Shown: positions 14,103 to 31,813, counted from the first letter of the stretch. The stretch: 64,000 nt of DNA from an uncultured Gammaproteobacteria bacterium (GCA_963797555.1 CAWCPV010000016.1:96001-160000), one strand, 5' to 3'. Numbers and translations are program-made. Notes: generated from the letters alone by a model not told the origin.

Positions 14103-16181
14103 ATGCAGCTCGACGCGCTCGACCAGATTGCGGCCAGGGCATTCGACGGCTTCATCGTCCGCAAGGACCTGGTGCGCCGCTTCAAGGGCCAGTATCCGGT
14201 GCCTACCTATGTGGGCGAGTTCCTGCTCGGACGCTATTGCTCCAGCACCGACGAGCGCGAGATCCAGGAGGGCCTGGAGATCGTGCAGCGCCAGCTCGAA
14301 AGCCGCACCGTGCGCGCCGGGGAGGAGGAGCTGTTCAAGGCGCGCGCCAAGGAGCAGGGCCGGGTGAAGCTGATCGACCTGATTACCGCCCGCTTGGACG
14401 CCAAGAACGATTGCTTCGTCGCCGAGCTGCCGAGCCTGCGGATTAGAGATGTCCGGATCGGCGACGAGCTGGTCCACACTCACGAGCGGATGCTGACCGG
14501 CGGTTTCTACGCCGAGGTGGATCTCAGCTACGACCCGAGCATCGCCGAGGAGAAGCATGGTCGGCCCTTCGGCATCGAGTCCCTGCGGGAGATCCAGCTC
14601 TCCAAGCGCGACGCTCTGGACACCATGGCCCGCGGGAGGATGCTCTTCACCTTCGAAGAATGGCGCAATTTCCTGTTGCGCAGCATCGGCCTGGAGCCCG
14701 AGAGCCTGACCGCGCGCACTCGCGACGTGATGCTCCTGCGTATGGTCCCCTTCGTCGAGAACAACTACAACGCCATCGAGCTGGGACCCCGCGGGACCGG
14801 CAAGAGCCATCTCTTCCAGCAGGTCTCGCCGTATGCGCACCTGGTCTCCGGCGGCAAGGCGTCGGTTGCGAGGATGTTCGTCAACAACAGCACCGGGCAG
14901 CGTGGGCTGGTGTGCCAATACGACGTGGTCTGCTTCGACGAGGTCTCGGGCATCACCTTCGATCAGAAGGATGGCGTCAACATCATGAAGGGCTACATGG
15001 AGTCCGGAGAGTTCAGCCGGGGCAAAGAGAGCATCCGGGGCTTCGGCAGCATCTACATGGTCGGCAACTTCGACGTGGATGTCGCGCACCAGCAGCGCAT
15101 CGGCCATCTGTTCGGTCCCCTGCCCCCGGAGATGCGCGACGATACCGCCTTCATGGACCGCATCCACGCCTATCTGCCGGGGTGGGATATCCCCAAGGTC
15201 AGCCGCGAGCAGCTCACGGATCACTTCGGCCTGGTGAGCGATTTCCTGTCCTCCTGCTGGAATCACCTGCGCGCTTCCTCGCGGCTGCAGAAGCTCCAGG
15301 GGCGCATCCACTTCGGCGGGGCGCTGAGCGGGCGTGATACGAACGCCGTCCACAAGACCATGAACGGCCTGCTGAAGCTCATGTACCCATACTCGACCGT
15401 CGAGGGAGGGGAAGGCGCCGAATACGCGGACCGAGAGATCCCGGACGAGGCCATCGAGTGGGCCGCCCGGCTCGCGCTGGAATGCCGCCGCCGCGTCAAG
15501 GAGCAGCAGAAGCGCATCGGCTCCGCGGAGTTCCGCAATACCCACTTCAGCTTTCAACTGGGCGTCGACGGCATCGAGCAGTTCGTCGCCACACCGGAGC
15601 TACAGAGCGAGGACAGCATCGGCGACGATCCCTTGCCGCCCGGGCAGGTCTGGGTCCTGTCACCCGGCGGCCCGGATGAGCATCCCGGGCTGTTCAGGCT
15701 GGATGCCACCGAGGGACCCGGCTCGGGAGTGAAGATCCTCAACCAGCCGCCGCCCGCCCCTTTCAAGGAGAGCGTGCGCTGCGCCGAGCAGAACCTTTAC
15801 GCCAGGGCGAGGGAACTGGTGGGCGACCGGGACCCGAGGTCGCATGAGTTCTCGGTCCAGATGCGCGCCTTCGATGCCAGCAAGACCGGCACAGCGACGG
15901 GTGTCGCCGCGTTGCTCGCCCTGTGCTCGGCGCTGCTGGAGAGAAGCCTCAAGGGCGGCCTGATCGTTGTCGGCGGGCTCAATCTCGGCGGGTCCATCGA
16001 ACCCATCTACAACGCCGTCAGCGTCGTCGAGGCCGCCGCCGACAAGGGGGCGAAGATGGTTCTTCTGCCGGTGACCACCAGAAAGCAGCTCATCGAACTG
16101 GACGACGCCATCGCGACACGCGTCACCCTGGTCTTCTACTCGGACGCTCGGGACGCGCTGCTCAAGGCGCTCATCGAGTAG
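14103..16181 (+). CDS. brxL: BREX Lon-like protein BrxL
   Basis: VPTYVGEFLLGRYC, ELGPRGTGKSH, VVCFDEV, AFMDRIHAYLPGW and a C-terminal Lon-like domain. Intact ORF. Confidence 0.93.
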   Translation: MQLDALDQIAARAFDGFIVRKDLVRRFKGQYPVPTYVGEFLLGRYCSSTDEREIQEGLEIVQRQLESRTVRAGEEELFKARAKEQGRVKLIDLITARLDAKNDCFVAELPSLRIRDVRIGDELVHTHERMLTGGFYAEVDLSYDPSIAEEKHGRPFGIESLREIQLSKRDALDTMARGRMLFTFEEWRNFLLRSIGLEPESLTARTRDVMLLRMVPFVENNYNAIELGPRGTGKSHLFQQVSPYAHLVSGGKASVARMFVNNSTGQRGLVCQYDVVCFDEVSGITFDQKDGVNIMKGYMESGEFSRGKESIRGFGSIYMVGNFDVDVAHQQRIGHLFGPLPPEMRDDTAFMDRIHAYLPGWDIPKVSREQLTDHFGLVSDFLSSCWNHLRASSRLQKLQGRIHFGGALSGRDTNAVHKTMNGLLKLMYPYSTVEGGEGAEYADREIPDEAIEWAARLALECRRRVKEQQKRIGSAEFRNTHFSFQLGVDGIEQFVATPELQSEDSIGDDPLPPGQVWVLSPGGPDEHPGLFRLDATEGPGSGVKILNQPPPAPFKESVRCAEQNLYARARELVGDRDPRSHEFSVQMRAFDASKTGTATGVAALLALCSALLERSLKGGLIVVGGLNLGGSIEPIYNAVSVVEAAADKGAKMVLLPVTTRKQLIELDDAIATRVTLVFYSDARDALLKALIE

Positions 16182-16585: not shown

Positions 16586-18686
16586 TCACAGCGACGCCGT
16601 GAACCCGATGGCCCGGCTGGTATGCGCGCCTTTCAGGCGGCTCTCGGTGTCGAGGCGCTCCAGCAGCGTCTCGGCGACCAGGTCCTCATCGCTCAGGCGA
16701 GTCTGACGCAGCACGGTGGCGAAGTCACCCGGCGTGAGGTTGTCGAGCCGCGCCAGCCGGAACAGGATCTGCTCACCCAGCCTTTCCGCGCCTGGAGCGG
16801 ACTCCCGGAGCGTCGCGAGGAACAGCCGCTCCGCCTGTTCGCGGGTCAGGAAGCGGTACTCCACCTTGAAGTCGAAGCGCCGCAGCACCGCCTCGTCGAG
16901 CTGCTCCATGAGGTTGGTGGCGCAGACGAAGATGCCCTCGAACTCCTCCAGTTGCTTGAGGAGCTCGTTCACCTGAGTGACCTCCCAAGAGCGAACGGCG
17001 CCCTGGCGGCTCCGGAGGAAGCTGTCCGCCTCGTCCAGCAGCAGAATGGCGCCTTCTGAGGCTGCTTGCCGGAACATGGCGGCGATGTTCTTCTCCGTCC
17101 GCCCGAGGTACATGTCGAGAAGATCCGAGGCGCGCCGCTCGATGAGCGGGCAGTCCAGATGCTCGGCAAGATGCTGGCCGAAGGCGGTCTTGCCGGTACC
17201 CGGTGGACCGTAGAGGCAGACCCGACCCTGCCGCGTGCGTCCGAGCCCCTCGGCCAGGGACCGCAGGTCGGTGCTGGCATGGCAGTAGTCGAGGTCGTAT
17301 GGGAGCGTCGGGAGCCCCCGAGGCTTCAGCGAAAAGGGAATTCCCCGCACCTCGAAGTGCCCGCGCAAGGTCCGTTCGAGGACCGCCTCCATCTCGCCGG
17401 GGGTGTCCGCGCCGAGGCGGGCCACCACTTTGCGGGCGCGTTCGATGTCGGCCGGGGTGAGGTGCTCGTTGCCGGCCAGGCGGTCGAGGGTCTCCTCGCT
17501 CACCGGCAAGTCCCCGAGGGCGCTCTGGAGCATGCCTCTTCGGACCTGCCGGGGCGGCACCGGAAGCTCCTGCACATAGTCGAAGCGGCGCAGGTAGGCG
17601 GGGTCGAACTGGTCCACGTGGTTGCTGAGCCAGAAGGTGGGTACCGGATTCTCTTCCAGGAGCTGGTTCACCCAGCCCTTGGTGCGGCCCTCGGAGGAGG
17701 ATCGACCGAGCCAGAAAGCGCTCGGCCGCGGGAAAACGTCCTCCACCTCGTCGAACAGGATGAGGTGGCGGGGATGCCGGGAGAGCATGCGCTGGCACAG
17801 GCGGTAGGCCCGGAAGCGGTCGGCGCCCTCGATGCCGTCGCCGTCCTCGTCTCCCGAGGCCACCTCGTAGAGGGTCGCCCCGAGCGCTTCGGAGAGCGCC
17901 CGCGCAAGCTCGGTCTTGCCGGTCCCCGACCGGCCGTGGAGGAGGATGTTGACGCCCCGAGCGCGGGTCTCCAGGACACGCTGGATATATCGGAGCAGAA
18001 GCTCCACCGGCTCCTTCAGGTGGGGATACTGGTCGAGGCGTACCCTCGCCCGGGGGCTCGGGCGGAACTGGGCGACGAACAGGGCGTGGAGATCGCGCTG
18101 CTCGGTCAGCAACGCACTGCCCGCGCCCTTGAGGAGCTCCAGCTTGCCCGCTAGTGCATAGGACCCGCGGTGGTCCACCTCGACCAGGCCCGCAGCACGC
18201 AAGGTGCCCTCCCGATGCAGGGCGCACTCGATGTCCGGGCGCGCCAGCTCGAGCACCGCGGAGAGCAAGCGGACGAGATCGCCACTATTCAGATCCCCAG
18301 CGCGTTCCCCGCACTCCCGCAGCAGGTTGTCGCTATGGAGCACCACCGTGAACAGCAGCAGTTCGGTCTCCGCCGCGCTGAGATCGAGCAGCTTCGCCAG
18401 ACGGCGGACGTTGCGCATCAGCGGACCGGAGCGCCGCGGCGGCCCGCTCGGCGTCTCGCGCAGTCGGCTCCGCACCGCCTGCCGGACCTGGGCGGAACTC
18501 AGGTCCTCCAGGGTTTCCGCATCGAGCCCGAGCAGGGGGCACAGGAGGTCCTGGTCCACTATCGGCGGAACAATGCGCGGCCGCCTCATGCCGTAAGCCA
18601 AAAGCCGCAGGGACCAGAGTCGAGACTGGGCCTCGAAGCCTTCCACGCTGCCCGCACCGAACGAACCGCGACGACGACGTCTCGAT
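16586..18686 (-). CDS. Tandem AAA+ ATPase
   Basis: Two Walker A motifs (GRSGTGKT, GPPGTGKT), two Walker B motifs (ILFDEVE, LLLDEAD), two RRFD arginine fingers and a C-terminal IGF. Start uncertain (about 18590-18690). Confidence 0.88.
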
Positions 18687-18720
18687 GGGGTGATCCTCTC
18701 TGCCAGGAATGGTAGGGACC

Positions 18721-18795
18721 ATTCTGGCCCAGGATCGCGACAAATCATGTCACCTGCTGTCGTGATTTGTCGCAACGGGTGCTTACGCTTAAACT
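18721..18795. promoter_or_regulatory. Divergent promoter with inverted-repeat operator (putative WYL site)
   Basis: Perfect 11-bp inverted repeat GCGACAAATCA (18737-47) / TGATTTGTCGC (18763-73). TGTCGC-N10-TACGCT points to the WYL gene and TGTCGC-N10-CAGAAT to the AAA gene. Confidence 0.7.
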
Positions 18796-18824
18796 GAACG
18801 ACTGCGGAGACGCAGAGGCGAGCC

Positions 18825-19850
18825 ATGAAGACTAAGACCGACACCTTGCTACGGCAGTGGGCGATGCTGCAGCACATCCCTCGCTACCCGAGGACCATCA
18901 CCACCCAGACCCTCAAAGACCGCCTGGCCGACGAGGGGCACGAGGTCTCCAAACGCACCGTGGAGCGGGACCTGGTGAAGCTGTCGCGAGTCTTCCGCCT
19001 GGGCTCGGAGACCCGGAACCGGGTGCAGCACTGGTTCTGGCCGGAGAACCTGGGCGTGTTCGACATTCCGGGCATGGGTCCGGCGGCGGCCCTCGCCTTC
19101 CGGCTGGCGGAGGCTCATCTCCGGCCGCTTCTTCCTCCGGCGACCCTGCAGTTGCTCGGCCCCTACTTCGAGCGCGCCAAGGAGATCCTGGACGCCGGCA
19201 ATTCAGGCCCCAAGGGTTGGCAGGACAAGGTCCGGGTGATTCCGCGCGGCCCCGAGCTTCGGGCGCCACAGGTCAAGCCCGAGGTCCAGCAGGCGGTCTA
19301 CCAGGCGCTGCTGGAGGAGCGACGGCTCCGGGTGGACTACCATCCGAAGGGCGCCGATCAGTTCCAGACTTACGAGGTGGGTCCCCTCGGGCTGGTGGTG
19401 CGGGAGGGCGTGCTCTATCTGGTCTCGACCCTGTGGGACTACACGGACATTAAGCAGCTCGCTTGTCATCGGATGACGACGGCGAACGTGCTGGAGAAGC
19501 GGGTGCGGCGGCCGCAGGGGTTCGATCTGGACCGCTACATCCGGGGCCAAGGGGAGTTCGCGTATCCCACCGGAAAGGGGAAGGTCCGACTGCGCGCTCT
19601 GTTCGACGAAGCGGCCGCGGAGCACCTGTACGAGCGACCGCTCGCAGACGACCAAGAGCTGAAGACGCGGCGCGACGGCCGAGTGCTCCTGACCGCCACG
19701 GTGCTCGACACCTACGAGCTGCGCTGGTGGCTGCTGGGGTTCGGGGAGCAGGTGGAGGTGGTGGGGCCGAAGGGGCTCAGGCGGGAGTTCGCCCGTATCA
19801 GTCAGGCGATGGCGGGGCGCTATTCAGGATCCGGAACGGAAGCAGCGTAG
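18825..19850 (+). CDS. WYL-domain transcriptional regulator (wHTH-WYL-WCX)
   Basis: N-terminal HTH (VSKRTVERDL), PLGLV..GVLYLV, HRM and WWLLGFGEQVEVVGP. Confidence 0.92.
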   Translation: MKTKTDTLLRQWAMLQHIPRYPRTITTQTLKDRLADEGHEVSKRTVERDLVKLSRVFRLGSETRNRVQHWFWPENLGVFDIPGMGPAAALAFRLAEAHLRPLLPPATLQLLGPYFERAKEILDAGNSGPKGWQDKVRVIPRGPELRAPQVKPEVQQAVYQALLEERRLRVDYHPKGADQFQTYEVGPLGLVVREGVLYLVSTLWDYTDIKQLACHRMTTANVLEKRVRRPQGFDLDRYIRGQGEFAYPTGKGKVRLRALFDEAAAEHLYERPLADDQELKTRRDGRVLLTATVLDTYELRWWLLGFGEQVEVVGPKGLRREFARISQAMAGRYSGSGTEAA

Positions 19851-20082
19851 TTGGTTGCCCGAGGGACCCTTGGGCCGGCGACCCAGGGCCGCGAGGCGCG
19901 CCATCCGCGGCCGCGCGGGAGCCTTGGAAATCAAACAGAAGCGGAACACCAGGTGCCATTTGACCATGGGCCAGTCCGAACAGGCGGCTTGCCGAACTGG
20001 GAGCCACGCCTGCCAGGGGACCGGTCCGGTCCCAACATAGAAGACGCGGTTGCGGTGTTCGCCGCGTGGTAGACTGCGTACG

Positions 20083-20367
20083 ATGGCTACAGTGACTTTC
20101 GACACCCTCAAGTACGTCAAGCGGCTCAAGGAATCCGGGCTTCCCGAAGGTCAGGCGGAGGCACAGGCCGAAGCGCTGGCCGACGTGCTGCAGACCAACC
20201 TCACCGACCTCGCCACACAGCGAGACCTGCGGGCTCTAGAGGACCGTTTGATTGCCCGGATAGATAAGCTGGATGCCCGGCTGAGCGGTGAGATCGCCCT
20301 CCTCAAGTGGATGCTCGGCCTGCTGCTGGGCGGCGTCGCGGCACTAATTCTGAAGGCATTCTTCTGA
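20083..20367 (+). CDS. DUF1640/CCDC90-like coiled-coil membrane-anchored protein
   Basis: FDTLKYVKRLKESG, QAEA, LATQRDL and LLKWMLG followed by a C-terminal TM segment. Confidence 0.8.
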   Translation: MATVTFDTLKYVKRLKESGLPEGQAEAQAEALADVLQTNLTDLATQRDLRALEDRLIARIDKLDARLSGEIALLKWMLGLLLGGVAALILKAFF

Positions 20368-20540
20368 CGGGGCTGACTCTGGACATTGCCCGAGCTCCGC
20401 CGTGTCGCGCCTTCGATGCACGAGCTGCATCCCGTTGGACGCGCCTTAGTGCACCTGCGGCAGTTCGGCTGCAACCCATCCGCCCCACAGCAGGGCACGC
20501 CGGCCAACGGCATACCTTCCACCCACGAGCCACATGTCAT

Positions 20541-20640
20541 CGTCATTCCGGCATGGATTGCCGGAATCCAGAGACCAGGGACGGTCATCCGGATCACATC
20601 CCTGTGCCTAGATTTCCGCCACTCCATGGCGGAAGGAGAT
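20541..20640. repeat. CGTC-family REP doublet (degenerate)
   Basis: CGTCATTCCGGCATGGATTGCCGGAATCCAG plus a degenerate inverted partner at about 20607-20640. Confidence 0.7.
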
Positions 20641-20776
20641 TTGTGCAGGGACATGGCTCAAGGGTTTGCGCTGGCACCCGTCGAAGCTGCCCAGCCCCGA
20701 GACCGTCCGATTGACGGACACCCCGTAGCTTCCTATGCTGGAGGCTGTCAACCATAGCGTCCGGCCTACATTGGCC

Positions 20777-21430
20777 ATGTCCCTCGCGCTGAAGGTCACC
20801 ACTGCCGACGGAAAGGAATTCGCCGGCCCCTACTTGCTGCGGGTGGGTGGGTGGACCGAGGAGCGCTATTTCGCCGAGGCGCCTGAATCACAAATCGTCG
20901 AATTCGATGACGGGGACCTCATCGTGCCGTCTCCTCTCAACATCCACCACCAAGACTTGGTCGGCTTTCTGTCGTTCCTGCTGCGCGGATACGTAAGCTC
21001 GAAGGGCTTGGGGCGGGTCTTCAATGGTCCAGCCGTCGTCCGGCTTCGCCCCGGCCTCGACTACGAGCCCGACATCTTCGTCGTGCTGGCCGAACAGTTG
21101 GCTCAGATCGGCAAGCAGTACATCTCGGGTGGGCCAGCGTTTCTCGTCGAGGTCATCTCGCCCGGCGGACGCAGTTACGACTTGCATTCCAAGGCGGACA
21201 ATTATCGCCGATACGGCGTCCGCGAGTACTGGGCTATCGACCCGGAAACACGCACGCTCCATCAGCACAACCTTTCCGATCACGATGAAGGCCGTTACCT
21301 CGTCAGAGAATACGTCAGTGGCCGGGTGGAAAGCACCGTGCTGCCCGGGTTCTGGATCGACGCCTCGTGGCTCTGGCAGGAGCCCTTACCGGAGGGGTTC
21401 TCGCTCCTGGAAGAGTTGCTTCGGTCCTGA
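20777..21430 (+). CDS. Uma2 family endonuclease
   Basis: HQDLV, EPDIFV, LVEVISP and YRRYGVREYWAIDP. Confidence 0.9.
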   Translation: MSLALKVTTADGKEFAGPYLLRVGGWTEERYFAEAPESQIVEFDDGDLIVPSPLNIHHQDLVGFLSFLLRGYVSSKGLGRVFNGPAVVRLRPGLDYEPDIFVVLAEQLAQIGKQYISGGPAFLVEVISPGGRSYDLHSKADNYRRYGVREYWAIDPETRTLHQHNLSDHDEGRYLVREYVSGRVESTVLPGFWIDASWLWQEPLPEGFSLLEELLRS

Positions 21431-21586
21431 GAGCGCGCTGTTCCTGGCACAGGACATGCCTTGCCAGTCAGTGGCCGTGAGGCGGAGCTTGGGACGGCGG
21501 TGCGCTGCGGATACCGGCCTCGGTCGTGTCGTGGGAAATAAAACAACGACCCCAATCACGTTGAAATGTGCGCGCGAGCTTGGTAC

Positions 21587-21717
21587 TTACACACAATTCG
21601 TCATTCCGTACAGGGAGTGTACGGAATCCAGGGGCAAGGATGCCGAGCCATGCCGTCCGTGGCCTCTGGATTCCGGCTTCCCAGCCGGAATGACAGTTGA
21701 GACCAAGAGTTGTGTAA
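21587..21717. repeat. CGTC-family REP doublet within a MITE-like unit
   Basis: CGTCATTCCG..CGGAATCCAG / CTGGATTCCGGC..GCCGGAATGAC (21599-21694), bracketed by TTACACA and TGTGTAA. Confidence 0.7.
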
Positions 21718-21736
21718 CGGCAAGGGCCTACGGGGT

Positions 21737-22129
21737 TTACAGATGGCTCAGGGTCACCGGCCGAACCAGCTCGGAATAGCGTGCCAGGAAGGCATCCGAG
21801 GTCACCAGGTAGGCGGGCAGCGTTTGTGCTTGAGCGACCAACAGGCGGTCGAACCGGTCGTGGTGGTGCCAAGGTAAGCGTGCGACAGCAAACGCGTGGG
21901 CTGCGGCGATAGGCAGCTCGGTGAATCCGGTATCGATTGCCACTCGGTGCACCTCGTCGGGCGGAACGGAAAAGTCGCCCCGTCCCAGTGAGGTCTTGAT
22001 GGCGATCTCCCAAATACGGGCAGCGCTGAACAGGATCTCACACTCGGGATCCCGAAGCTGCGCATGTACACCGCCGGGCAGCCGCTCTGGATCGATGACG
22101 GCTGCCAGCAGAACGTTCGTATGGATCAA
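21737..22129 (-). CDS. vapC: VapC PIN toxin (N-terminus possibly damaged)
   Basis: SAARIWEIAIK and HHDRFDRLLVAQAQ. The conserved first Asp reads as His (IHTNVLL). Confidence 0.8.
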   Translation of the reverse strand: MIHTNVLLAAVIDPERLPGGVHAQLRDPECEILFSAARIWEIAIKTSLGRGDFSVPPDEVHRVAIDTGFTELPIAAAHAFAVARLPWHHHDRFDRLLVAQAQTLPAYLVTSDAFLARYSELVRPVTLSHL

Positions 22130-22147
22130 GAGCTGTTACCCGGACAC

Positions 22148-22387
22148 CTAATCCTCCCCTTCGAACATGCGCCGAATCTCATTGGCATGCAGGGTGTCGA
22201 AATCTTCGGGAACTTCGAAGTGGCCCCTGCCGAGACCGAGCTGCCGCGGTTGCTTGCGCGGCTGCAGCGGCACCAGGCGCGCGATCGGCTTGCCGGCCTT
22301 GGCGATGATGATCTCCTCGCCCGCGGCCGCCTCCTCAACGTAGCAGGACAGGTGGGTCTTGGCCTCGTGGATGTTGATGGTCCTCAC
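22148..22387 (-). CDS. Phd/YefM family antitoxin
   Basis: INIHEAKTHLS and GEEIIIAKAGKPIARLVP. Confidence 0.9.
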   Translation of the reverse strand: MRTINIHEAKTHLSCYVEEAAAGEEIIIAKAGKPIARLVPLQPRKQPRQLGLGRGHFEVPEDFDTLHANEIRRMFEGED

Positions 22388-22592
22388 GGCGGAAACCCCG
22401 ACGGAGCAACTGACCGGACCAAACCTTAGTTCATGCCTGGATCGGTGTCGATGGTGCCCGACGCCCGAAAAGAATTGCGTCCCCGTTTACATCCCAAAGG
22501 CAAGACGAAAGACGCGACCCCAACCCGATCCCGCGCGGGGTATGCCGGCTGGTGCGGGGGCTACCGGCCAACCCCGAGCACCGCCTGGATTG

Positions 22593-23314
22593 TCAGCCGA
22601 ACAGGTCCCCTGACGGCAGGGTTTCACGGCGGGGCTTGGGTGGCCGGCCGGCCTTGCCGGGGCTCGCCTTGCGTCCGAGTGCCGCTTCCACCTGCAGCCG
22701 GAAGCGTTCGCCGCCGAGCGCGAAGTTTCCGTTGGTGGCCAAGCGGATCTCATCAACCGTCTCCGGATCGAGCTCGCTGCGGAACAGCAGCCGATACGCT
22801 TCCCGCGTGCGGTCTCCGAACGGCCAAGCGCGAGGTACTGGGCATGCGGTACCACGTGCTTGGAAGTCTTGCCTTCAGCGTTCGTCCGGTAGCTGGACCA
22901 GCGGTAATAGCGCGGATGACTGACCATCTGCGCCCGCACGGGATTCAGCTCGATGTAGCGGTAACAGGCCAGCACATAGTTCTCTTCCTGCGCCACCCAG
23001 GATCGAAAGCGTCCCTCCCACAGCGTCCCGCTGCGCCGATAGGTACGATTGACGTACTGCACATAGCGCTGGCCCAGGTGCTTCATCAACAGCGAAGCGC
23101 TGTCGGCTTTCTGCGGCGTGAGCAACAAGTGCACATGGTTGGTCATCAGCACGTAGGCGTGGACCGCGCAGCCGAACTTCGTTGCATTCTCGGCCAAACG
23201 CTCCAGGTAAAGTACGTAGTCTTCGTCGGCGAAGAAGCAGGCGTCGCGGTTGTGACCGCGCTGGATCAGGTGCAGCGGAACACCGGCAAGCGCAATGCGA
23301 GGGCGGCGGGGCAT
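22593..23314 (-). CDS. REP-associated tyrosine transposase (RAYT, Y1 HUH), one frameshift
   Basis: MPRRPR, HLIQRG, YVLMTNHVHLL (HUH), LWEGRF and YIELNPVRA. Frame break near 22800, ending ..GRP..GDLFG-stop. Confidence 0.85.
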
Positions 23315-23322
23315 ACGCGCGC

Positions 23323-23556
23323 TTAGTGGTTCTCGGCCTCCGCCGCAAAAACCTCGGCCGTCAGCCCGGCCGCCCGAATCAGGCTGCGCAGCGTTCCCCT
23401 GGCGACTTCCTTGTGATCCGGCACCGACAGCGTCGCGATACGGTCGGGCTTGACGAGGATAATGTGGCTGCCGCGCCGTCGCACCACTGAACCGCCCAGC
23501 CTCTCGAACACATGAACGACCTCGCGCCCGCTGAGGACCGGCAGGACCGGCGTCAC
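23323..23556 (-). CDS. hicA: HicA toxin
   Basis: SGREVV, RRRGSHIIL and SVPDHKEVARGTLRSLIRAAGL. Confidence 0.88.
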   Translation of the reverse strand: MTPVLPVLSGREVVHVFERLGGSVVRRRGSHIILVKPDRIATLSVPDHKEVARGTLRSLIRAAGLTAEVFAAEAENH

Positions 23557-23759
23557 GCGGAAACCTCGATCTGACGCGTCTCGATGGTCCGGGGAAGCCC
23601 CCGCTCGGCCCGTACTTCCAGGCACAGCTTGATGACCTCGGCGATATTGGCGAGCGCCTCATCTTTCGTGGCTCCCTGGCTAACGCAACCGGGAATCGCC
23701 GGGCACTCCACGATCCAGATGCCATCTTCGTCCCTGTCGATCGTCACGTTGAACTTCAT
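23553..23759 (-). CDS. hicB: HicB antitoxin
   Basis: IDRDEDG and ECPAIPGCVSQGATKDEALANIAE. Confidence 0.88.
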   Translation of the reverse strand: MKFNVTIDRDEDGIWIVECPAIPGCVSQGATKDEALANIAEVIKLCLEVRAERGLPRTIETRQIEVSA

Positions 23760-23969
23760 CGCATCGCACTCCGCGGGGTGGGGTGTGTCATCATGCCAAA
23801 TCAAGAGGCGCCGCCAAGACAATGGTGGTCTGTCCCCGATCGCCCATGGTTGCGGGCACGGTCCACAGAAATCGTTCAGGGTCCGCCTGCGATTCGAAGT
23901 AGCCACGTTGGCAAACCATTTCCCTCGCTGCCACACTAACGAGGTGACACCGACAGAGGAGTCCAAGCC

Positions 23970-24332
23970 GTGAGCGCCACACCGACGCCACTTGCCCTCG
24001 AGCGAGAAGCTCCCCCCCTGCGCCAAGACGCGAACGGAGTGATCCGCGTCGCGCAAACCCGCGTGACGCTCGAGAGCATCATCTCCCTCTTCGAGCAAGG
24101 GGCGAGTCCCGAAGAGATTGCGCTGCGCTACGATGTCCTGGATCTGCATGACATCTACGCGACCCTGAGCTACTACCTCGGTCATCGGCAACAGACGCAG
24201 GAGTACCTGGACCGCGCACGTCAAGTATCGCTCGGGGCACGGCGTGACGCGGAGCGCCGCTCAGGCGCTGCGGAGATACGCGAGCGTCTGATGCGCTACC
24301 GGAACCGCCCCGATGCTCAGTCTGCTGGCTGA
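23970..24332 (+). CDS. DUF433 antitoxin-like protein
   Basis: GVIRVAQTRVTLESII, GASPEEI and DIYATLSYYL. Confidence 0.85.
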   Translation: MSATPTPLALEREAPPLRQDANGVIRVAQTRVTLESIISLFEQGASPEEIALRYDVLDLHDIYATLSYYLGHRQQTQEYLDRARQVSLGARRDAERRSGAAEIRERLMRYRNRPDAQSAG

Positions 24333-24663
24333 CGAAAACCTCGACGCGAACATTATGCGCGGGGTCCTGCGACGCGTCCGCGACATCGACGTCGTCCGAG
24401 TGCAGGACGTAGGCCTTACCGGGACCGACGATTCGAAGGTTCTTGCATGGGCCGCCGAGCACGGCCGCGTGCTGGTCACACACGATGTCGAGACGGTGAC
24501 GCGGTTTGCCCTCGAGCGCGTCCATGCGGGTCTGCCGATGCCCGGCGTGATTGAGATCATCGCATCGGCCTCGATCGGCAAAGCTGTGGACGACCTGGCA
24601 TTGGTGCTCGAATGCTTGGCGGAAGGCGAGCTGTACGACCAGGTTCTCTACCTACCGCTGTAG
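24313..24663 (+). CDS. DUF5615 PIN-like toxin
   Basis: LLADENL, GTDDSKVLAWAAEHGRVLVTHD. Confidence 0.88.
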   Translation: MLSLLADENLDANIMRGVLRRVRDIDVVRVQDVGLTGTDDSKVLAWAAEHGRVLVTHDVETVTRFALERVHAGLPMPGVIEIIASASIGKAVDDLALVLECLAEGELYDQVLYLPL

Positions 24664-24836
24664 TCGGGCAATGGAGGCCGATACGTGATCACCGTGCCGC
24701 CGGGGTAACGCGATAGGAACTCTCCTAGCTTCGCACCCGAACCCGACCCGTACGAGAAGACAATCGGGGTCTGTCGCCGATTATCGCGAAACGGTCTCGC
24801 ATGGCCCGCACGATACGACGTCCTCGCCGGAGGTTA

Positions 24837-24888
24837 CAAGGCGAGAACTGACCCTGGATCCCCAAGGCGAGAACTGACCCTGGATCCC
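24837..24888 (+). repeat. Perfect 26-bp tandem duplication
   Basis: CAAGGCGAGAACTGACCCTGGATCCC twice, followed by a partial TGGATCCC copy. Confidence 0.85.
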
Positions 24889-25167
24889 GCTGGATCCCGC
24901 CCTCGGAGCCGGGCTGAAGGGACTCCGCGTCATCCTGGGCGCCGGCCCAGGCACCGGCGTTCGGGAGCGTACCAGGCGGGTCATGCGGCCTGCCATTGGA
25001 GAGCAACGGGTTCCCCACAATGCCTGCGGGGGTGACCAGCGTTTGTGTACCCGCCAGAAGAAAACGACGACGATCCATCTGAGACCTCCGTGCCGAAGGC
25101 CGTGGGGCGTAGCTCCTTGCGCCAGCACCGCCAAGTGCACAGCGCAGCGTGCTCCCCACTTGGATAC

Positions 25168-25878
25168 CTATGGTGTCACTGCGTGCGCCCCGGCGCCGCC
25201 CAGTCCCCCTCCCTGCAGGCCCCAGTATGTCGCCTGATAATCAAGGTCGCTTCTAAGATTGGCGCCATCCATTAGGCGTAGCGCCGCGATCCCCTTGTCC
25301 AGGAGTGGACCCAGGTTATCGCTTGTCTGGATTGCCACCAAGGGCCACGGCACAACAGCCAGTTCGTCCAAGTCGTCGCTCCCGCCTGCCCCAAGTAATT
25401 CCTCCGGCCACGGTTCTTCAGGAAACTTGCGGAACATGGAAGCGGCGGACGGATTGGCGACCGATGAATAGATGGCGAGCGCAATTTTGCTGCACGTCTG
25501 CGAAGGCCAAACACCCCCCACGGCCTTGCATCGCGCTCGAGCAAAATATCCGAATGGTGTCCAAAATAGGCCATCAGGATTGAACTTCATAAAACAAATA
25601 GCCCATACGAAATGGTCATTTGTCTGCGAAAACTCTTCTCTCCCCTCGATGAATTGACCCCAGTAAATACGAGGCAAGATGAAACCCTCATCGCCCACCC
25701 AGCTCCAGGTTTCGCAAGTAAATTTCTTCGTGTAGCCAATCACCTTACACGTAAGTCCTTTCTCTTCGAGCACTTGCCTGATAGTCTCCGCTAACCAGTA
25801 CATGCTGCGAAAGTACTTGTTGGCTTGGTAGTAGGCCTTGGCGCATTCCAGCCCCCTGTCCGTCATTGCATTGTTCAC
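25168..25878 (-). CDS. Hypothetical protein (lower GC)
   Basis: About 236-aa ORF with a GGAGGA RBS before GTG 25878, about 30 bp after the reconstructed nuclease stop. No family recognised. Confidence 0.65.
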   Translation of the reverse strand: MNNAMTDRGLECAKAYYQANKYFRSMYWLAETIRQVLEEKGLTCKVIGYTKKFTCETWSWVGDEGFILPRIYWGQFIEGREEFSQTNDHFVWAICFMKFNPDGLFWTPFGYFARARCKAVGGVWPSQTCSKIALAIYSSVANPSAASMFRKFPEEPWPEELLGAGGSDDLDELAVVPWPLVAIQTSDNLGPLLDKGIAALRLMDGANLRSDLDYQATYWGLQGGGLGGAGAHAVTP

Positions 25879-26230
25879 CCTTAGTCCTCCGTGTTTTGTT
25901 GGAAAATTATCAAACACTCTGACCGTGAAACGGCGCAGGAAACGTTTCCAACTCGCCACCGAAGCGCGCCAAGTACTTCTGTGAACATTGCGTCGCCATC
26001 GGAGCGTAATTGACGAGCGGGCCACAACACGTCCAAGTCAGAGTCTCAGCGGCCGCGGCAAATGCCGTGGGGCGCCAAATGGGAAATTGGTGGGCACCGC
26101 TAAATCGCCCGAACCCTTTATGCTCGCACAGATCCCGGGTAACCGTTCAGACCCTCCCACCAGTTGATCGATGCGTTAAGAGCGCGTCCAGCGCAGCAGA
26201 GCCGCTCGGCTTGTCGTACACTCCCGGCTC

Positions 26231-26949
26231 ATGGATCAAGAGCCCTCTATTCCGCAGGCGATCACGGCGAGCGGCCGGAGCTTTACCGAAGAGGAGATCT
26301 CCGCCATCGTCCGAATGGTGTCGATGTGCGTGGGCCTGAGTCGTTTTGAGCTGGCGCAGACCATCTGTGAGCTGCTGGGGTGGAGACGGGACAACGGAGC
26401 CCTGAAGTCCCGCGAGGGTCGGGATCTACTGGAGCGGTTGGAAGCTCGGGGGGATCTGGGGCTTCCCGCCAAGCGCACGGGCAGGCCCAAGGGGCGGCGC
26501 ACCTGCACTGCGCAGACCGATCGGGGCGAACGCCGCGGCGAGATTGCCGGTGCGCTGCAGGAGGTGGCCCCGGTGGAGCTTCAGTTAGTGCGCCAGGCCG
26601 AGGGACGGGCATTGTGGCGCGAGCTTCTCGCGCGCTATCACTACTTGGGCTATGCCACACCCTTTGGGGCCCAGTTGGTCTATCTCATCCGCTCCCAGCG
26701 CCGGGAGGGGGAGGTGTTGGGCGGGCTCACCTACACCAGCCCGGCCTGGCGCATGCAGGCCCGCGATGCGTGGATCGGCTGCGCTTTGCCGGGACCTGCT
26801 ACCGGGCGGCCAACTGGTGCGAGGTGGGCGAGACCAGCGGACGCGGGCGCATGGACCGTGCGCACCAACGCCATGGCAGAGCGATAAAGCGGGTCTTCCT
26901 CTACGCTCTGCACCCGCAGGCCAGAGAGCGCCTGCGCGGTGAGCGCTGA
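26231..26949 (+). pseudogene. DUF4338-like passenger gene with frame break
   Basis: SRFELAQTICELLGW, YHYLGY and RDAWIG, then an out-of-frame jump straight to RFAGTCYRAANW. Confidence 0.7.
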
Positions 26950-26951
26950 AC

Positions 26952-28521
26952 TCAAGCGGGCGCAGGAAGCGGCGGTGCCTCAAAGCCGCGGCGTCGGTGG
27001 GCGAGGACATCTCTGAGATAGCACAGCGGGGAGCTCAATCGCAGCCGAGAAGTCTCGATCACACTGGCGAGCAGCGCCAGCGCCCGGCTGCCTTGTTCGC
27101 TGCGGGTCCCCTGGCTGATGCGACGCAGAATCACCCAGTGACGCAGCGCCCGCTCCGCCACGTTGTTGGTCAGCGGCAGCTGAGGCTCATCCAACACCCG
27201 GAAGATCGCCCCCCAGTCGTTGAGCAGCTCCTTGCCCAGCGCCTGGGCCTTGTCATAAGGGCAGCAGCTCATGCGTTCACACAGGGCCGTGAGCTCGTTG
27301 AGCTCCGCCCGGGTGGGCTTGCCGCAGGGAGCCGCCCGGTCCCTCGCGGGCGTGATAGACGGCCTGCATCAGCGCATCGAGCAGGTCATAGACCGCCTGG
27401 CCGTAGCCCTGGAGGGTGGGCGAGAGGCAATCCCTCAGGCCCCGGGCCTTGCGAATGAGATGCGCCCAGCAACGCAGGCGCTTGGCATAGTCCCGATAGA
27501 CCTGGTACCCATCGCTCATCAGATAGCCGCAGAAGAGATCCTCGATGAGGTTCTGAAACATCTCTTTGGCGCGAGAGCCGACCAAGAACAGCGCCGTCGA
27601 GGCCGAGATGAACACCCATAACCACAAGGGCTCTCCCCATTGCTTGTGCGGTGTCTCATCGGCATGCATGAGGGCCGCTTCCAGCAACTGGGTCACCAGC
27701 TCATCCTCGACCGGCTCGCAGGCACGGGCGGTCTCCATCACGCATTGGTGGAGGGTGCCGATGCCGAGCGCCAGCCCAAACACCTCGTGCAGGAACTCCC
27801 GGACCAGGCGGATGGACAGGCGCATCCGAAACCGCAGCCAGACGATGAAGGCGCACAATCCCGGCCCCACCAGGCGCCACTCGCCAAGCTCCACCCCTCG
27901 CCAGCATCCCAAGTGCTCGGGCGCGCGGTGCGGCGCCTGCCGGGTCTCATGACCACAGTCGCAACGGCTCTGGTAGTATACCTGCCGCGTGCAGGTCAGG
28001 CGCAGCCCCGGCGCCTGCTCATCGCCAAAGACCAAGTCCAGCCTATCAAAGGCGGTGTAGGGCTTCGCCTGCTCAGGATTGAGCGCCCCACCACACAGCG
28101 CACAACTTCCCGGCCGATGATGGTCCCAATCGGTGACTGTCAGCTTCTGGGCGCGCCCGAATCCCTGGGAGCCAGGCTGCCGGCCCGCTCGGCGCTGCGT
28201 CCCTGAGGTCTTGCCACTCGTGTCCTTTGCGCCCTTCTGGCCGCCAGCCCCGGGGAGGCCATCCTCCTCAGAACGGCTCTTGGCCTCCTCGTCCTCAGGA
28301 CCGGCGTCGGCCTCTTCGTCCTCCCGCGCACGCAGCCAGGGGTCTTGACTGCTCGGCGGACGAGAGCTATTGGAGGGACTCTGATTGAGCCGCTCCCACG
28401 CTTCCTTGAGATCCTGCAGCAGGCGGATGCTCAGCGCTGCCAGCGCATCGGGATCCTTCTGCCTCAGCTCCAGAATGCGCTCCTCGCTGAGCTGACGAAG
28501 GTCGTGCTCCTTGAGCACCAT
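26952..28521 (-). CDS. IS66 transposase (frameshift near 27300)
   Basis: NSSRPPSS, HADET, LMSDGY, CWAHLIR and TNNVAERALR. Confidence 0.88.
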
Positions 28522-29597
28522 GATTGTGTGTGACAGTGAGGTCGAGGAACATCCTGCCAAGGGCACCCAACTGTCTCACGCTGGAACCGTTTTGTCCAGC
28601 CCTCCGGGTCAAAATATTCCAGGGGGGTGAACGGTTACGATCCCGGAGGTCCTTTACGATTCGGACAGGGCCGAACTGCGCGAGCTCAGACGTTTTGCAC
28701 AATGCATCTAATGCCTCTGGAAGATCGTTCCAGCTTAGCCAGTAAAGCTCCACGTGCCGGAGTCCTTCCCGATCTGCCTTCTCCCGCGAGGCATCCATGA
28801 TATCGGTCGGATAGGCGTGGTCTCGGGTCAAGAAGATCTCCACCTTGCGACAGGCGGGCCAGCGCTGCGAGGCCCCACGCATTTGTCGCACCAACTGGTT
28901 CATCGATCGCCTGCGCGCCTCTTCCACATCCGCTGCTGCTAAACTACTGGTGCCCGCATCTTGTGATGCAGGTGAAGGGTCGTCGCTGCTCAGACCACTG
29001 CGGTACTTGACTTCGATGAGCACAACAGTCTGTCGGCGTCCGGTTTCGGAGATTTCCACCTGGAGGTCAGGCTGAACGGTGGAATCGCCGTCCGGCAGAG
29101 TGGGCCAGAACGCCACGGCTTGCACTGTCGGTTGCTCGAATCTCAATCGATCGTGCTCCGCGTTCGGTCCTCCGCGGCGATAAGCTTTTTCCAGAAAGGG
29201 TAACAGTAACTGCTCGGGCGGAAAGTAACGCATCGGCCCGAACACGTCACCGGTAAGTTGGTCCTCTGCACCCGCACAAGCCGGCTTTCCGTAGATTTCC
29301 GCAATCATTGATGTAAGCCCCTGAAGACCATCAGACAACATGCAAGCTGGCACTGTACCGAAAGCAAAATCCGCCGTCCATCACCCCAGTTCACGCGCGT
29401 CTTGTCGGCCCGCTCGTTCGGCCGTACCCGGCCCGACGCCGTTTCATAAACTTCCTATCGGGGCAGGTCCGCAAGACAGCGTGCCGCAGCCAGGGGGACC
29501 TTACCCTGTGGGACGGAAGGGGAGACGGCCCTTGACCAGCCTGGGCGCTGATCCGCCAGCGCAACGCCAGCTTCGGCTGGCGCCGCCGGAAGGTCCC

Positions 29598-29831
29598 TCA
29601 CCTTCCCACCTCCGCCTCCGTGAAGTTCACCAGGTACCACTTGCCCCCGAACTGACAGGCCCTGCCGACGGCCCTCACGAGGTTGTTGCCGCCGCGCAGC
29701 GACACGGCCGTCTCGTATTCCTTGCAGATGAGGCTGCGCGCGTGCCCGGAATTCCACCTGAGCGCAAGCAGCAGGCATAAGGGTATCAGCAGGAGCGGCA
29801 GGTATTGGGTCAGTCGACGGGCATGAGGCAT
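29598..29831 (-). CDS. Small hypothetical protein with N-terminal hydrophobic helix
   Basis: 77-aa ORF co-oriented between the DUF2779 and nuclease genes. Confidence 0.35.
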   Translation of the reverse strand: MPHARRLTQYLPLLLIPLCLLLALRWNSGHARSLICKEYETAVSLRGGNNLVRAVGRACQFGGKWYLVNFTEAEVGR

Positions 29832-29958
29832 ATCTGTTCTCCTCGGGGGTGTGGAACGGGTTTAGCCTCAGGGAATCGACTCAGCCCGCGCTGCCTCTTC
29901 AATCACCTGTCCAGAAGCGGCCGGGCAATGCCCTCAGTCGGGCCTCGCTCTCCACCCC

Positions 29959-31302
29959 TCACCCCGCGTCCTCGAACAGCCGCACCAGACGAACGAGCGC
30001 CAGGGTATCCCGCTCGCAGTAACGCAGCAGGTGCTCTCGGAGGGCGTCCCGGCGCTCCGGGGAGGTGGCGGGCTCGACGGCCTCCAGATAGGCGAGCTGG
30101 GCCTCGACGCCGTCGCGCACCTCGGGGAGGTTCCCGTAATCGAGCTCCGGGGCGATGGTGGAGAGCACGGCCTTCAGCGAGTAACCGCCGTTCAGCGCCG
30201 GGTGGCGGTAGGCGCGCCGCGTCAGAGGCAGGAGGTCGACCAAGCGGGGTACGAGCCCGAGCAGTCCGTCCGACAGATCGGGAAACAGCTCCGCGAGCTG
30301 GCGGATGACGGTGCGCTCGAAGTGGCTGTAGATGAGGATTGGTCCATCGCGGCCGAGCGTCTCGAGGAGCGCCTCGGCGAAGCGGCGCATGGGCGGCGCA
30401 CCGCTCGTGTCCAGGAATTCGTGGTGGGTGAGGCGCCCCCGGCCATCGTCGCGGTGGCAGGACCACTGGAAGGGGAGCTGCTGATACGGCCGCGTGCCCG
30501 CCCAGAGCGGCACGGCGAACTGGATGGTCTCGAAGTCGAGATAGCGGCGGGGAAAGCCCAGAGAGCGCAACCGCTCCGCGGGCTCGGAGCCGATCCAGGG
30601 GGAATCCTGGGGCGGACCCCGGGGACTCTCCTCGGCGGTCACCGGACCCGAGCAGTGCTCCAAGAAGGGGCACGGATAAGGGTCGTCGCACTGGTCTCCG
30701 ACCGGGACGTTGGGAAGGCTCCCGTCGAGCACCGCCCGAAACCGCTCCACCCAGGTTCCGACCTCCGGCTGCAGCGCACGCGCCTCGGCGGTGAGGTCGT
30801 GGTGGGCGAAGAGCCCACGGTAGTCGCCCCCGCCGGGGTAGACGAAACCGGTGTCGATGCAGGCGAGCTCGATGCGAGACAGGGGTATCCCCGCCCTTTC
30901 CAGCACCCAGGCTTGCACGGCGCAGTCCGGCAGATAATGCTCCTTGACCGAGGCGGCGGCCTTGACCTCCCGCAGGCAGTAGCCGGGTCCGTGCGGAAGG
31001 AGGATGTCGGTGCGCACCAGGACGCGGTCGTGGCGGAACGCGCCCTCGAACACCGGACGGCGCTCGGCCAGGGCCGCCTGAGTCTCTTCCAGGGCCTGGG
31101 CGAGGTCCTCGAAGTGCTCGATGAGCCGGCCGCCAGGATGGAGCCCGCGCGCGACCGCCCCCACGTCCTCTCCTGCGGAGAGCCAGCGTGCGCGGTCATC
31201 GCCCGCCTCCGCAAGCTCGGGATGGTGGACTTCGAGGTAGAGCCGCTTGGGGCACTGCAGCCCCGCCATGATCTTCGACTTGGACAGCCAGGCGCCACTC
31301 AC
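29959..31302 (-). CDS. DUF2779 domain nuclease-like protein
   Basis: LSKSK, QCPKRLYL, RTDIL..EVKA, YLDFET, QLPFQWS, YSLKAVL and YCERDT (PD-(D/E)XK plus RNase H-like parts). Confidence 0.85.
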   Translation of the reverse strand: MSGAWLSKSKIMAGLQCPKRLYLEVHHPELAEAGDDRARWLSAGEDVGAVARGLHPGGRLIEHFEDLAQALEETQAALAERRPVFEGAFRHDRVLVRTDILLPHGPGYCLREVKAAASVKEHYLPDCAVQAWVLERAGIPLSRIELACIDTGFVYPGGGDYRGLFAHHDLTAEARALQPEVGTWVERFRAVLDGSLPNVPVGDQCDDPYPCPFLEHCSGPVTAEESPRGPPQDSPWIGSEPAERLRSLGFPRRYLDFETIQFAVPLWAGTRPYQQLPFQWSCHRDDGRGRLTHHEFLDTSGAPPMRRFAEALLETLGRDGPILIYSHFERTVIRQLAELFPDLSDGLLGLVPRLVDLLPLTRRAYRHPALNGGYSLKAVLSTIAPELDYGNLPEVRDGVEAQLAYLEAVEPATSPERRDALREHLLRYCERDTLALVRLVRLFEDAG

Positions 31303-31340
31303 TTCGTTTTCCCCTCAAAGGGCATATCGGGAATGGATGT

Positions 31341-31371
31341 ACTCTACCTGCCCGATGCGACAAACTGCGTC
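31341..31371 (-). promoter_or_regulatory. Putative WYL-dependent promoter of the DUF2779 gene
   Basis: Minus strand GACGCAGTTTGTCGC-ATCGGGCAGG-TAGAGT, the same TGTCGC-N10-TANNNT layout as at 18768-89. Confidence 0.6.
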
Positions 31372-31813
31372 TTTACGATGGGAGGGTACGGCGTGGGAGA
31401 CCATGCCGCGGTGAGTTGAGTTCACTCGGGGGCCCGGTAATCACCGGGGACGTTCCTTCCGTAGCTCCGCGGTGAACACGATGCTGTGGGAGTCCTCGCC
31501 CCAGTCCGGGCGGCCGAGCCTGACGCGCTAACAAACTTGTCAACTTCTGTCCCCTCCCCTGCTCGGCACGCACTTGAGGTTCGGCTCGACCACCGGCGAG
31601 GTCATTCGAAGTCCCGGTCGCCGTGCACCGACCGTGCTCGATCGCGATGGGTGCGACGAGGCAGTCCAATGTCGAGCGCACTGCGAGTCCGCGCGCGGCG
31701 GCGCCGATAGAACTCCGCTGCCCGCCAGGTCCCGACGGGTTCGAGCGGATGCCTGAAGGTCAGCGAACCGAGGCAGGTCCCCAGTGGTCGAAATCCTCCT
31801 GCCCGCGCGCGGG

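Follow-up and report, generated by a model that had tools for sequence, protein, structure and literature searches.

The 64,000-nucleotide stretch of DNA analysed here (G000:C16:96001-160000; hereafter, the window) comes from G000, a draft genome of an uncultured gammaproteobacterium that comprises 5.35 Mb in 20 contigs, has a G+C content of 65%, and is 84.6% complete. Gram-negative features in the window include Omp85 and a sigma-54 activator, and the relatives sampled for this genome have only its class in common. Our subject is a set of three genes, one for a regulator with WYL and WCX domains, one for a tandem AAA ATPase encoded divergently from the regulator, and one, farther along, for a nuclease with a DUF2779 domain. 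An initial annotation, made from the sequence alone, had placed ahead of these genes, and beside a bacteriophage exclusion (BREX) locus, three promoters that share an element lying exactly 10 nt before a -10-like hexamer. All three sites were re-found in the sequence with the same coordinates and spacing, and the identities assigned to the genes (AAA, WYL, DUF2779, and BREX) hold by Pfam and defence-model scans. Comparison with related loci supports the view that the genes for the regulator, the ATPase, and the DUF2779 nuclease make up what appears to be a conserved mobile module.

The 8-mer shared by the three promoters, TTTGTCGC, belongs to a 17-bp palindrome, GCGACA-N5-TGTCGC, which we refer to as the box, and makes up the promoter-proximal half of it. 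Together, the AAA and WYL sites form an inverted repeat, GCGACAAATCA-N15-TGATTTGTCGC, which spans 18737-18773. The half-palindrome GAC-N7-GTCGC, previously reported for two of the three sites, occurs at the AAA site and at the DUF2779 site but not at the WYL site. A sigma-70 scan of the AAA-WYL intergenic region returned no -35/-10 pair. If the -10 is taken to occupy -12 to -7, the box extends from about -39 to about -23, so there is no room for a -35 element. The public gene call for the ATPase (P0244, 720 amino acids [aa]) starts at an ATG inside box 1 (window 18649-18748). We favor the GTG at 18649 as the start, because homologues align from residues 2 to 12 and because of the position of the predicted transcription start.

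The combination of element and hexamer is rare in this genome. TTTGTCGC by itself occurs 12 times in the window, versus 1.90 +/- 1.49 times in 100 shuffles (0/100 shuffles reached 12), and its 109 copies genome-wide correspond to 1.3 per 64 kb. When the hexamer is included, TTTGTCGC-N10-NANNNT is found five times in the 5.35-Mb genome, four of them in the window, and the composite with TANNNT (TTGTCGC-N10-TANNNT) is found twice, both times in the window. A looser pattern, TGTCGC-N11-A-N3-T, is weak alone (five matches versus 1.64 expected; 4/100 shuffles reached five). The full palindrome with at most one mismatch is not enriched genome-wide (21 copies versus 22 to 33 in three shuffles).

It had also been pointed out that the 8-mer occurs elsewhere without a -10 element. 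Such copies exist, although one that had been placed near 42511 is really at 42571, and the copy at 61974, which was located correctly, is joined by another at 61994. The nine additional copies (28882, 37987, 38419, 39281, 42571, 50360, 53055, 61974, and 61994) were considered as operators and rejected, as they are without the distal half or the -10 and most are inside open reading frames (ORFs). The segment 39288-39265 was rejected as well: it departs from the box by two mismatches, carries AACGGT at N10, is situated within the 3' portion of an ORF, and falls outside the top 25 matches of the promoter matrix described below. Eight of the nine copies are crowded into 32001-62001, within a single 64-kb bin (genome mean, 1.3); they are mostly in coding DNA, in mixed frames, and without a distal half-box or -10. 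If this island was acquired, its own oligonucleotide usage may account for the clustering. Two intergenic copies at 61974-62001 form a direct repeat 20 bp apart, upstream of an ISL3 transposase gene (62722-63885), and the repeat may belong to the end of this insertion sequence.

Table 1. Promoter elements, genes, and neighboring features, in window coordinates
Feature	Position	Strand	Details
AAA site	TGTCGC 18742-18737	-	10 nt, then CAGAAT 18726-18721
Box 1, GCGACAaatcaTGTCAC	18737-18753		17-bp palindrome, 1 mismatch; TGTCGC half on - strand, 10 nt upstream of AAA -10
AAA -10-like hexamer, CAGAAT	18721-18726	-	predicted transcription start near 18714
WYL site	TGTCGC 18768-18773	+	10 nt, then TACGCT 18784-18789, then ATG 18825
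Box 2, CTGTCGtgattTGTCGC	18757-18773	+	good only in promoter-proximal half; 3 bp from box 1; serves WYL gene
WYL -10-like hexamer, TACGCT	18784-18789	+	predicted transcription start near 18796; GAGG 8 nt ahead of ATG
DUF2779 site	TGTCGC 31362-31357	-	10 nt, then TAGAGT 31346-31341, then GTG 31302
DUF2779 box, AAGACGcagttTGTCGC	31357-31373	-	proximal half perfect, distal core 3/5
DUF2779 -10 hexamer, TAGAGT	31341-31346	-	predicted transcription start near 31334; GAGGGG ahead of GTG
Tandem AAA ATPase gene	16586-18649	-	Pfam AAA PF00004, two P-loops
WYL-WCX regulator gene	18825-19850	+	Pfam PF13280, PF25583
DUF2779 gene	29959-31302	-	PF11074
BREX-1 locus	1-16181	+	brxA, brxB, brxC (pieces), pglX (two pieces), pglZ, brxL; TacA/GNAT, ParE, and DUF433 inserted
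Small ORF	20050-20364	+	
Uma2 nuclease	20735-21427	+	
PIN, HicAB, DUF433/DUF5615	21740-24660	both	
ORF without assigned identity (orf22433)	22433-23323		
DruA fragment	26231-26884	+	
IS66 transposase, split	26955-28566	-	

Gene linkage and the box in related loci

Eighty related loci were drawn from public genomes with a 38-sequence profile of the regulator; three more bring the set to 83, and seven metagenome loci bring it to 90. By their record titles, the loci belong to Nitrospira, Zetaproteobacteria, Gamma- and Betaproteobacteria, and a metagenome-assembled genome (MAG) labelled as Chloroflexi. The closest WYL homologues are 74 to 94% identical to the regulator; the scan of metagenomes did not recover them and gave its seven loci at 41 to 48%. 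Within 5 kb of the WYL gene, an AAA gene is present in 41 of the 83 loci, a DUF2779 gene in 19, both in 8, and neither in 31, counts that come from homologous loci, and so are not independent events, and from contigs of which many are short. For the 39 loci with at least 5 kb on each side, the corresponding numbers are 25, 13, 5, and 6, and 33 of them have at least one of the two genes. Where it is upstream of the WYL gene, the AAA gene is divergent in 17 loci and co-directional in another 17; the DUF2779 gene lies on the same strand as the WYL gene, upstream in 10 loci and downstream in 8.

All three genes stand together in G012 (locus L011), where the regulator homologue is 46% identical. 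There, the DUF2779 and WYL genes are adjacent on one strand, with the WYL gene directly upstream, and the AAA gene is divergent. Between the divergent genes are 166 bp that contain two perfect palindromes, GCGACA-N5-TGTCGC and CGACA-N5-TGTCG, with one box standing 10 nt before a CAAACT that faces the AAA gene and the other 10 nt before an AAGAAT that faces the WYL gene. In the window, the regulator and nuclease genes are separated by about 10 kb of DNA that contains toxin-antitoxin genes, a DruA fragment, and a broken IS66 element.

The initial annotation had allowed the co-regulated set to include a small ORF, the Uma2 nuclease, and an ORF of unassigned identity and had associated the set with BREX. 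The core of three genes is backed by linkage, by a conserved promoter, and by the matrix; the additional members are not. None of the three has a box. Homologues of the small ORF and of orf22433 occur near the WYL gene in 0/90 loci, and the Uma2 gene, which has a sigma-70-like promoter of its own, gave three weak matches that are kilobases away. BrxL is found in 0/83 related loci, on which ground an association with BREX was rejected. When the small ORF, Uma2, orf22433, orf25171, orf28370, orf29340, the DruA fragment, orf33281, and DUF2254 were evaluated as conserved members by tblastn against the 90 loci, the three weak Uma2 matches were the only ones obtained, and all nine candidates were rejected.

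The box recurs with the regulator. The motif search upstream of homologous neighborhoods that had been proposed as a check located the box upstream of WYL, AAA, and DUF2779 genes among the 83 loci. In 1.21 Mb of related loci, there are 43 perfect copies of CGACA-N5-TGTCG, versus one to three in five shuffles, and 156 copies with at most one mismatch, versus 35 to 43. Each box was paired with one ORF, the longest among those of 80 aa or more whose start lies at most 300 nt downstream, on either side; the 254 resulting pairs fall into 134 sequence clusters, and this pairing may choose wrong frames in G+C-rich loci. The largest clusters are AAA (40 pairs in 36 loci) and WYL (36 pairs in 33 loci), and eight pairs are with PcfJ-like genes and five with DUF2779 genes.

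The distance from the box to the hexamer is tightly constrained in the AAA promoters: NANNNT lies 9 to 11 nt after TGTCGC in 36/40 pairs (27 at N10, eight at N9, and one at N11), versus a background of 12.5%, and three of the four remaining pairs involve second, more distal boxes in loci that also hold a good box. These hexamers are of the form TAnnnT or CAnnAT. The CAGAAT of the window is found also in L059, CACAAT is found in L060 and L077, and CATAAT is found in L076, at N10; TACGCT at N10, as ahead of the regulator gene here, is present in the AAA promoters of L043 and L045. A hexamer at N9 to N11 accompanies 8/8 PcfJ-like pairs and 4/5 DUF2779 pairs. All of this, from the boxes with their spacing and conservation to the linkage of the genes, was established by computation.

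The WYL side of the intergenic region takes other forms in some relatives. In the Nitrospira records L025, L026, L033, L041, and L043, a single box lies between the divergent AAA and WYL genes, 10 nt from the AAA -10, and abuts TATAGT or TATCGT on the WYL side. In a related group of gammaproteobacterial MAGs, TAGAAT lies 15 nt from the box, just ahead of the WYL ATG.

We scored all 10,690,038 positions of G000 with a matrix derived from 36 different promoters of other genomes (AAA, PcfJ-like, and DUF2779 families with N10 spacing; the window was left out, and the training minimum is 22.0 bits). The DUF2779 promoter of the window ranks 1st, at 26.4 bits, and the AAA promoter ranks 2nd, at 22.8 bits. 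These two are the only sites to reach the range of the training set. The site ranked 3rd (C4:555626, 20.3 bits) has a poor -10 and looks like coding DNA, and the WYL promoter of the window ranks 28th, at 9.5 bits. As its promoter ranks 1st, we conclude that the nuclease gene, although 12.6 kb away, carries the promoter of the family. A genome-wide regulon in G000 was considered and rejected, since no sites besides these two attain training-set scores, a result in keeping with the unenriched palindrome.

Other genes with boxes in the relatives encode PcfJ-like proteins, PD-(D/E)XK nucleases, FtsZ/tubulin-like proteins, 5'-nucleotidase, metallophosphoesterase, PP2C, and DUF6557 (39/40 selected proteins were scanned; the one left out, L055:485-1516, is a WYL homologue). 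At L015 15937-16797, L039 5405-6442 and 9074-9895, L062 3715-4986, and L092 8874-9860, the box drives FtsZ/tubulin-like genes, one with a ClpX-type zinc finger, and a gene for the DnaB C-terminal domain only. The FtsZ-like and DnaB_C-only products may be blockers or decoys of division and replication. The mixture as a whole, rich in nucleases and including look-alikes of division and replication proteins, would fit a damage checkpoint or a conflict system alike.

The encoded proteins and their surroundings

The regulator is 341 aa long and contains a WYL domain (PF13280, 52.4 bits versus a cut-off of 21.8, 5e-14) followed by a WCX domain (PF25583, 65.7 bits versus a cut-off of 23.9, 5e-18). 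There are weak signals of a helix-turn-helix (HTH), among them a profile match to the ArgR winged HTH (wHTH) at an E value of 0.0055. R44 and R48 do not vary among the 38 aligned sequences. When the PDB was searched with a profile of the family, it gave DriD as the best match (5e-17), followed by PafBC (9e-12), and no match to BrxR or CapW at an E value of <=0.01. Homologues number 1026 at an E value of <=1e-20. A second WYL match in G000, on another contig, is 26% identical, and there is no further one in this genome. The best reading of the protein is a DriD-like activator, as the box fits the cores bound by the WYL activators DriD and DdaA, the register fits PafBC and DriD, and the sequence is nearest to that of DriD.

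Read from the GTG at 18649, the ATPase is 687 aa long. Besides a helical N-domain of about 200 aa, it contains two AAA modules, in each of which the Walker A and B motifs are intact; G239-K245 with D300-E301 and G481-K487 with D539-E540 are invariant in the alignment. The structural model (predicted local distance difference test [pLDDT], 85.6) finds its best Foldseek match in Rix7/NVL (3e-21), and Cdc48/p97 (Cdc48, 6e-20) and DRG1 are also matched. The protein is thus a putative type II (double-ring) Cdc48-like AAA+ unfoldase, and its family includes at least 2105 proteins at the threshold used (8000 scored candidates). Identification of the ATPase as IetA was rejected: it scores 121 bits with the NCBIfam IteA model, versus a cut-off of 510, its PADLOC match is confined to the second AAA module, and a scan of 19 proteins gave no IetS.

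The DUF2779 protein (447 aa; PF11074, 125.7 bits versus a cut-off of 23.3, 1.7e-36) combines an N-terminal Cas4-like PD-(D/E)XK domain with four cysteines and a C-terminal DEDD 3'-5' exonuclease domain. The residues D99, E112, K114, C17, C205, C211, C217, D256, E258, and D432, invariant in a 31-sequence alignment, are all present. The model (pLDDT, 91.7) is matched by Foldseek to Cas4, RecE, and MGME1 and also to the PolB exonuclease, TREX1/2, and Pol III epsilon. At the threshold used, the family includes at least 4588 proteins (8000 scored candidates). In searches for known defence systems, PADLOC gave only partial IetA and generic WYL models and nothing for DUF2779, and NCBIfam gave nothing for WYL or DUF2779.

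The BREX-1 locus appears to be decayed, with an error in MAG assembly as a possible alternative. brxC matches its model in pieces (1767-4010 with profile positions 254-894 and 4196-4543 with 960-1070), pglX is split into 6487-8106 and 8804-10141 with the middle missing, and pglZ is without about 200 N-terminal positions. The DruA (Druantia) fragment, 218 aa, matches profile positions 34-117 only and adjoins the IS66-family transposase, which is split into two ORFs. Farther along, at 40304-54216, are lipid and envelope genes encoding a DUF900 hydrolase, two chalcone-isomerase-like proteins, a SpoIIAA-like protein, and two patatin-like phospholipases, one with a POTRA/Omp85 fusion.

Proposed mechanism and alternatives

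On balance, and with moderate confidence, we propose that the WYL-WCX protein is an activator of the DriD/DdaA/PafBC type that drives a Cdc48-like unfoldase and a Cas4-like/DEDD nuclease through the conserved box, and that it is probably triggered by single-stranded DNA (ssDNA). The regulator would bind the 17-bp box, probably as a homodimer. Exactly 10 nt (sometimes 9) separate the promoter-proximal half of the box from the -10, and the box would take the place of a -35. By analogy, the signal would be ssDNA from DNA damage or from phage or plasmid replication, bound by the WYL domain, and the signal-bound regulator would recruit housekeeping RNA polymerase to promoters that are otherwise weak. 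In the window, the predicted outputs are a strong promoter for the divergent AAA+ unfoldase, another for the DUF2779 double nuclease (Cas4-like 5'-3' and DEDD 3'-5'), and a weaker half-box for the regulator. Since each gene keeps its own promoter, co-induction can survive separation of the genes. We infer binding by the WYL protein, activation rather than repression, the ssDNA signal, and the start sites.

Several observations weigh against this proposal. The N-terminal HTH, at residues 20-54, is seen only below the Pfam cut-offs. In a pairwise alignment, the residues by which DriD contacts ssDNA are partly kept: Tyr168 and Tyr192 have tyrosine counterparts, and Lys202 and Trp206 are without like residues (contacts as in PMC9186387). 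With contacts conserved only in part, ssDNA is a tentative ligand. Two of the three boxes of the window are half-sites, and the AAA -10, CAGAAT, is without the usual first T. The promoters of the WYL genes are mixed, with a hexamer at N9 to N11 in only 14/36 pairs, and the single box of the Nitrospira records suggests activation of one gene together with self-repression of the other, the WYL gene. The shared ancestry of the loci, already stated for the linkage counts, also belongs here.

In a rival that we consider unlikely, although it is the strongest of the alternatives, the regulon is the same but the sign is opposite: a CapW/BrxR-like repressor would sit on the box, block RNA polymerase, and leave upon binding ssDNA, de-repressing the ATPase and the nuclease. 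The position of the box, which overlaps the core promoter, would suit a repressor too, but there is no -35 or extended -10 by which these promoters could fire unaided. The WYL gene's own -10 directly adjoins the box in Nitrospira-type loci (TGTCGTATAGT), a classic layout for auto-repression; a repressor would tolerate variable placement, however, whereas the strict N10/N9 register of the AAA promoters (35/40 pairs) is needed by activators of this family (PMC8635444, PMC13004042). The module is located in a defence-type island, and CapW and BrxR, the WYL regulators of such islands that have been studied to date, repress (PMC11662680, PMC12392091), but the regulator is nearest in sequence to the activators DriD and PafBC and, at an E value of <=0.01 in the PDB search, matches neither BrxR nor CapW.

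It is less probable still that G000 retains only the decaying remnant of a regulon that once worked, a reading that overlaps the others and does not exclude them. The local DUF2779 protein is without a linker segment of about 45 aa between its nuclease domains (columns ~270-320) that is kept in 30/30 aligned homologues. This absence, which also counts against the activator proposal, implies that partial decay of the local copy is possible. Nevertheless, the two nuclease domains keep their catalytic residues and the ATPase keeps both Walker A/B pairs, all three ORFs are intact, and the ATPase and nuclease models fold with high confidence. The gene order is scattered, and two of the three boxes have one good half, but the two effector promoters score within the training range. 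In the same island, brxC and pglX are in pieces, pglZ is short at its N terminus, IS66 is split or frameshifted, and DruA is a fragment.

We can hardly credit that the box is bound by a factor other than the neighboring WYL protein or that the three matches arose by chance, as the nine further 8-mer copies in coding DNA and the unenriched palindrome might suggest, because the box accompanies the WYL gene in its promoter region in 33 loci of several phyla, its core is the same as that of boxes bound by the WYL proteins DriD and DdaA (PMC12392091), and chance cannot account for ranks 1 and 2 among 10.69 million positions.

A role of the module in the response to DNA damage is as possible as a role in defence. 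A broader version is possible but tentative. The module would be a self-contained, horizontally moving "mini-SOS" cassette that joins an ssDNA alarm, PafBC-style promoter reprogramming outside Actinobacteria, and a new anti-phage or anti-plasmid pair of effectors. The unfoldase might strip or unfold proteins at DNA ends while the nuclease degrades both strands, and, in relatives, FtsZ and DnaB decoys might halt division and replication.

Relation to known systems

WYL activators that sense ssDNA are master switches of the DNA damage response in three lineages, represented by PafBC, DriD, and DdaA. The proposed regulator shares features with each. The suggestion that the promoters follow a PafBC- or DriD-like grammar was sound, as both the spacing and the letters of the core match exactly (PMC8635444, PMC12392091).

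DriD of Caulobacter crescentus, a homodimeric, ssDNA-triggered wHTH-WYL-WCX activator, is the best match among solved structures, and its site has the same palindromic core and bidirectional layout. The core is CGAC-N7-GTCG (PMC12392091), and in the bidirectional promoter of driD and its target, the site overlaps the -35 position while keeping a single, fixed distance to the -10 (PMC13004042). DriD activates the operon divergent from driD and, according to the same source, is not autoregulated. The match is a distant one, limited to WYL-WCX (phmmer E value, 5e-6). DriD also differs in controlling a chromosomal DNA damage regulon that includes didA, bapE, recJ, and dnaG (PMC9186387, PMC13004042), whereas G000 has no strong sites other than the two local ones. 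Neither a tandem AAA ATPase nor a DUF2779 protein is among the targets reported in the available parts of these two papers, although their supplements may list more.

DdaA is a WYL activator of Moraxellaceae whose box, CGWCA-N5-TGWCG, includes the CGACA-N5-TGTCG found here and is bound by DdaA homologues of distant phyla (PMC12392091). DdaA also drives CRISPR-Cas and some restriction-modification genes. Its box, however, lies about 50 bp upstream of the start site and not in the PafBC-like register (PMC12392091), and DdaA is a global regulator that replaced SOS.

PafBC, which acts in mycobacteria by sigma adaptation, has an identical promoter grammar and is the second-best structural relative by profile. 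Its promoters conform to tGTCgg(N10)tA(N3)T and possess a "-26 element" but lack a -35, and PafBC inserts between the DNA and sigma (PMC8635444). This motif is fitted by TGTCGC-N10-TACGCT and TGTCGC-N10-TAGAGT, with C replacing the last g; the AAA site has CAGAAT. PafBC differs in being a heterodimer or fusion of two paralogues that is linked to the Pup-proteasome genes of Actinobacteria and recognizes a single half-site, whereas here there is one 341-aa gene, a palindrome with two halves, and record titles from Proteobacteria and Nitrospira.

BrxR and CapW have the same wHTH-WYL-WCX order, if the putative wHTH of the regulator is accepted, and are found in defence islands, CapW senses ssDNA (PMC11662680), and a BREX locus adjoins the module here. 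These regulators differ in that the PDB search gave no match to them, the regulator gene of the window follows brxL and faces away from BREX, BrxL is absent from the related loci, and the promoter grammar is that of the activators.

The second AAA module matches IetA models of the IetAS (Gao_Iet) system at 1e-40, but the ATPase has two AAA modules with an N-domain of its own, and IetS was not found among the 19 proteins. As for unfoldases of the Cdc48/p97 type, the model of the whole ATPase superposes by Foldseek on the double rings of Rix7, Cdc48, and p97. Solo Cas4/PF11074 proteins such as MMSYN1_0389 of JCVI-syn3.0 have the same fusion of Cas4-like PD-(D/E)XK and DEDD domains (PMC13621843, PMC3985635), and the available parts of these papers name no regulator or partner. 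The four Fe-S cysteines are kept here, whereas the mycoplasma protein has only two (PMC13621843).

The view that no described system contains the set of WYL, AAA, and DUF2779 genes is consistent with the literature, in which we found nothing that links DUF2779 to WYL or AAA and no cassette of WYL with an AAA ATPase and a nuclease or PcfJ, although the DriD and DdaA supplements may list targets. Thus, the type of regulator and the promoter grammar are known already; what we have not found in print is a local mobile regulon in which a Cdc48-like ATPase and a DUF2779 nuclease are the most constant cargo. The conserved box provides a handle for finding regulons in any genome, for constructing reporters, and for addressing the question of defence versus repair, and it offers a natural way of learning whether sigma adaptation extends beyond Actinobacteria. 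Compared with PafBC, DriD, and DdaA, the locus suggests that an ssDNA-type WYL switch with the same promoter grammar exists in many other phyla as a small mobile cassette that controls its own cargo only.

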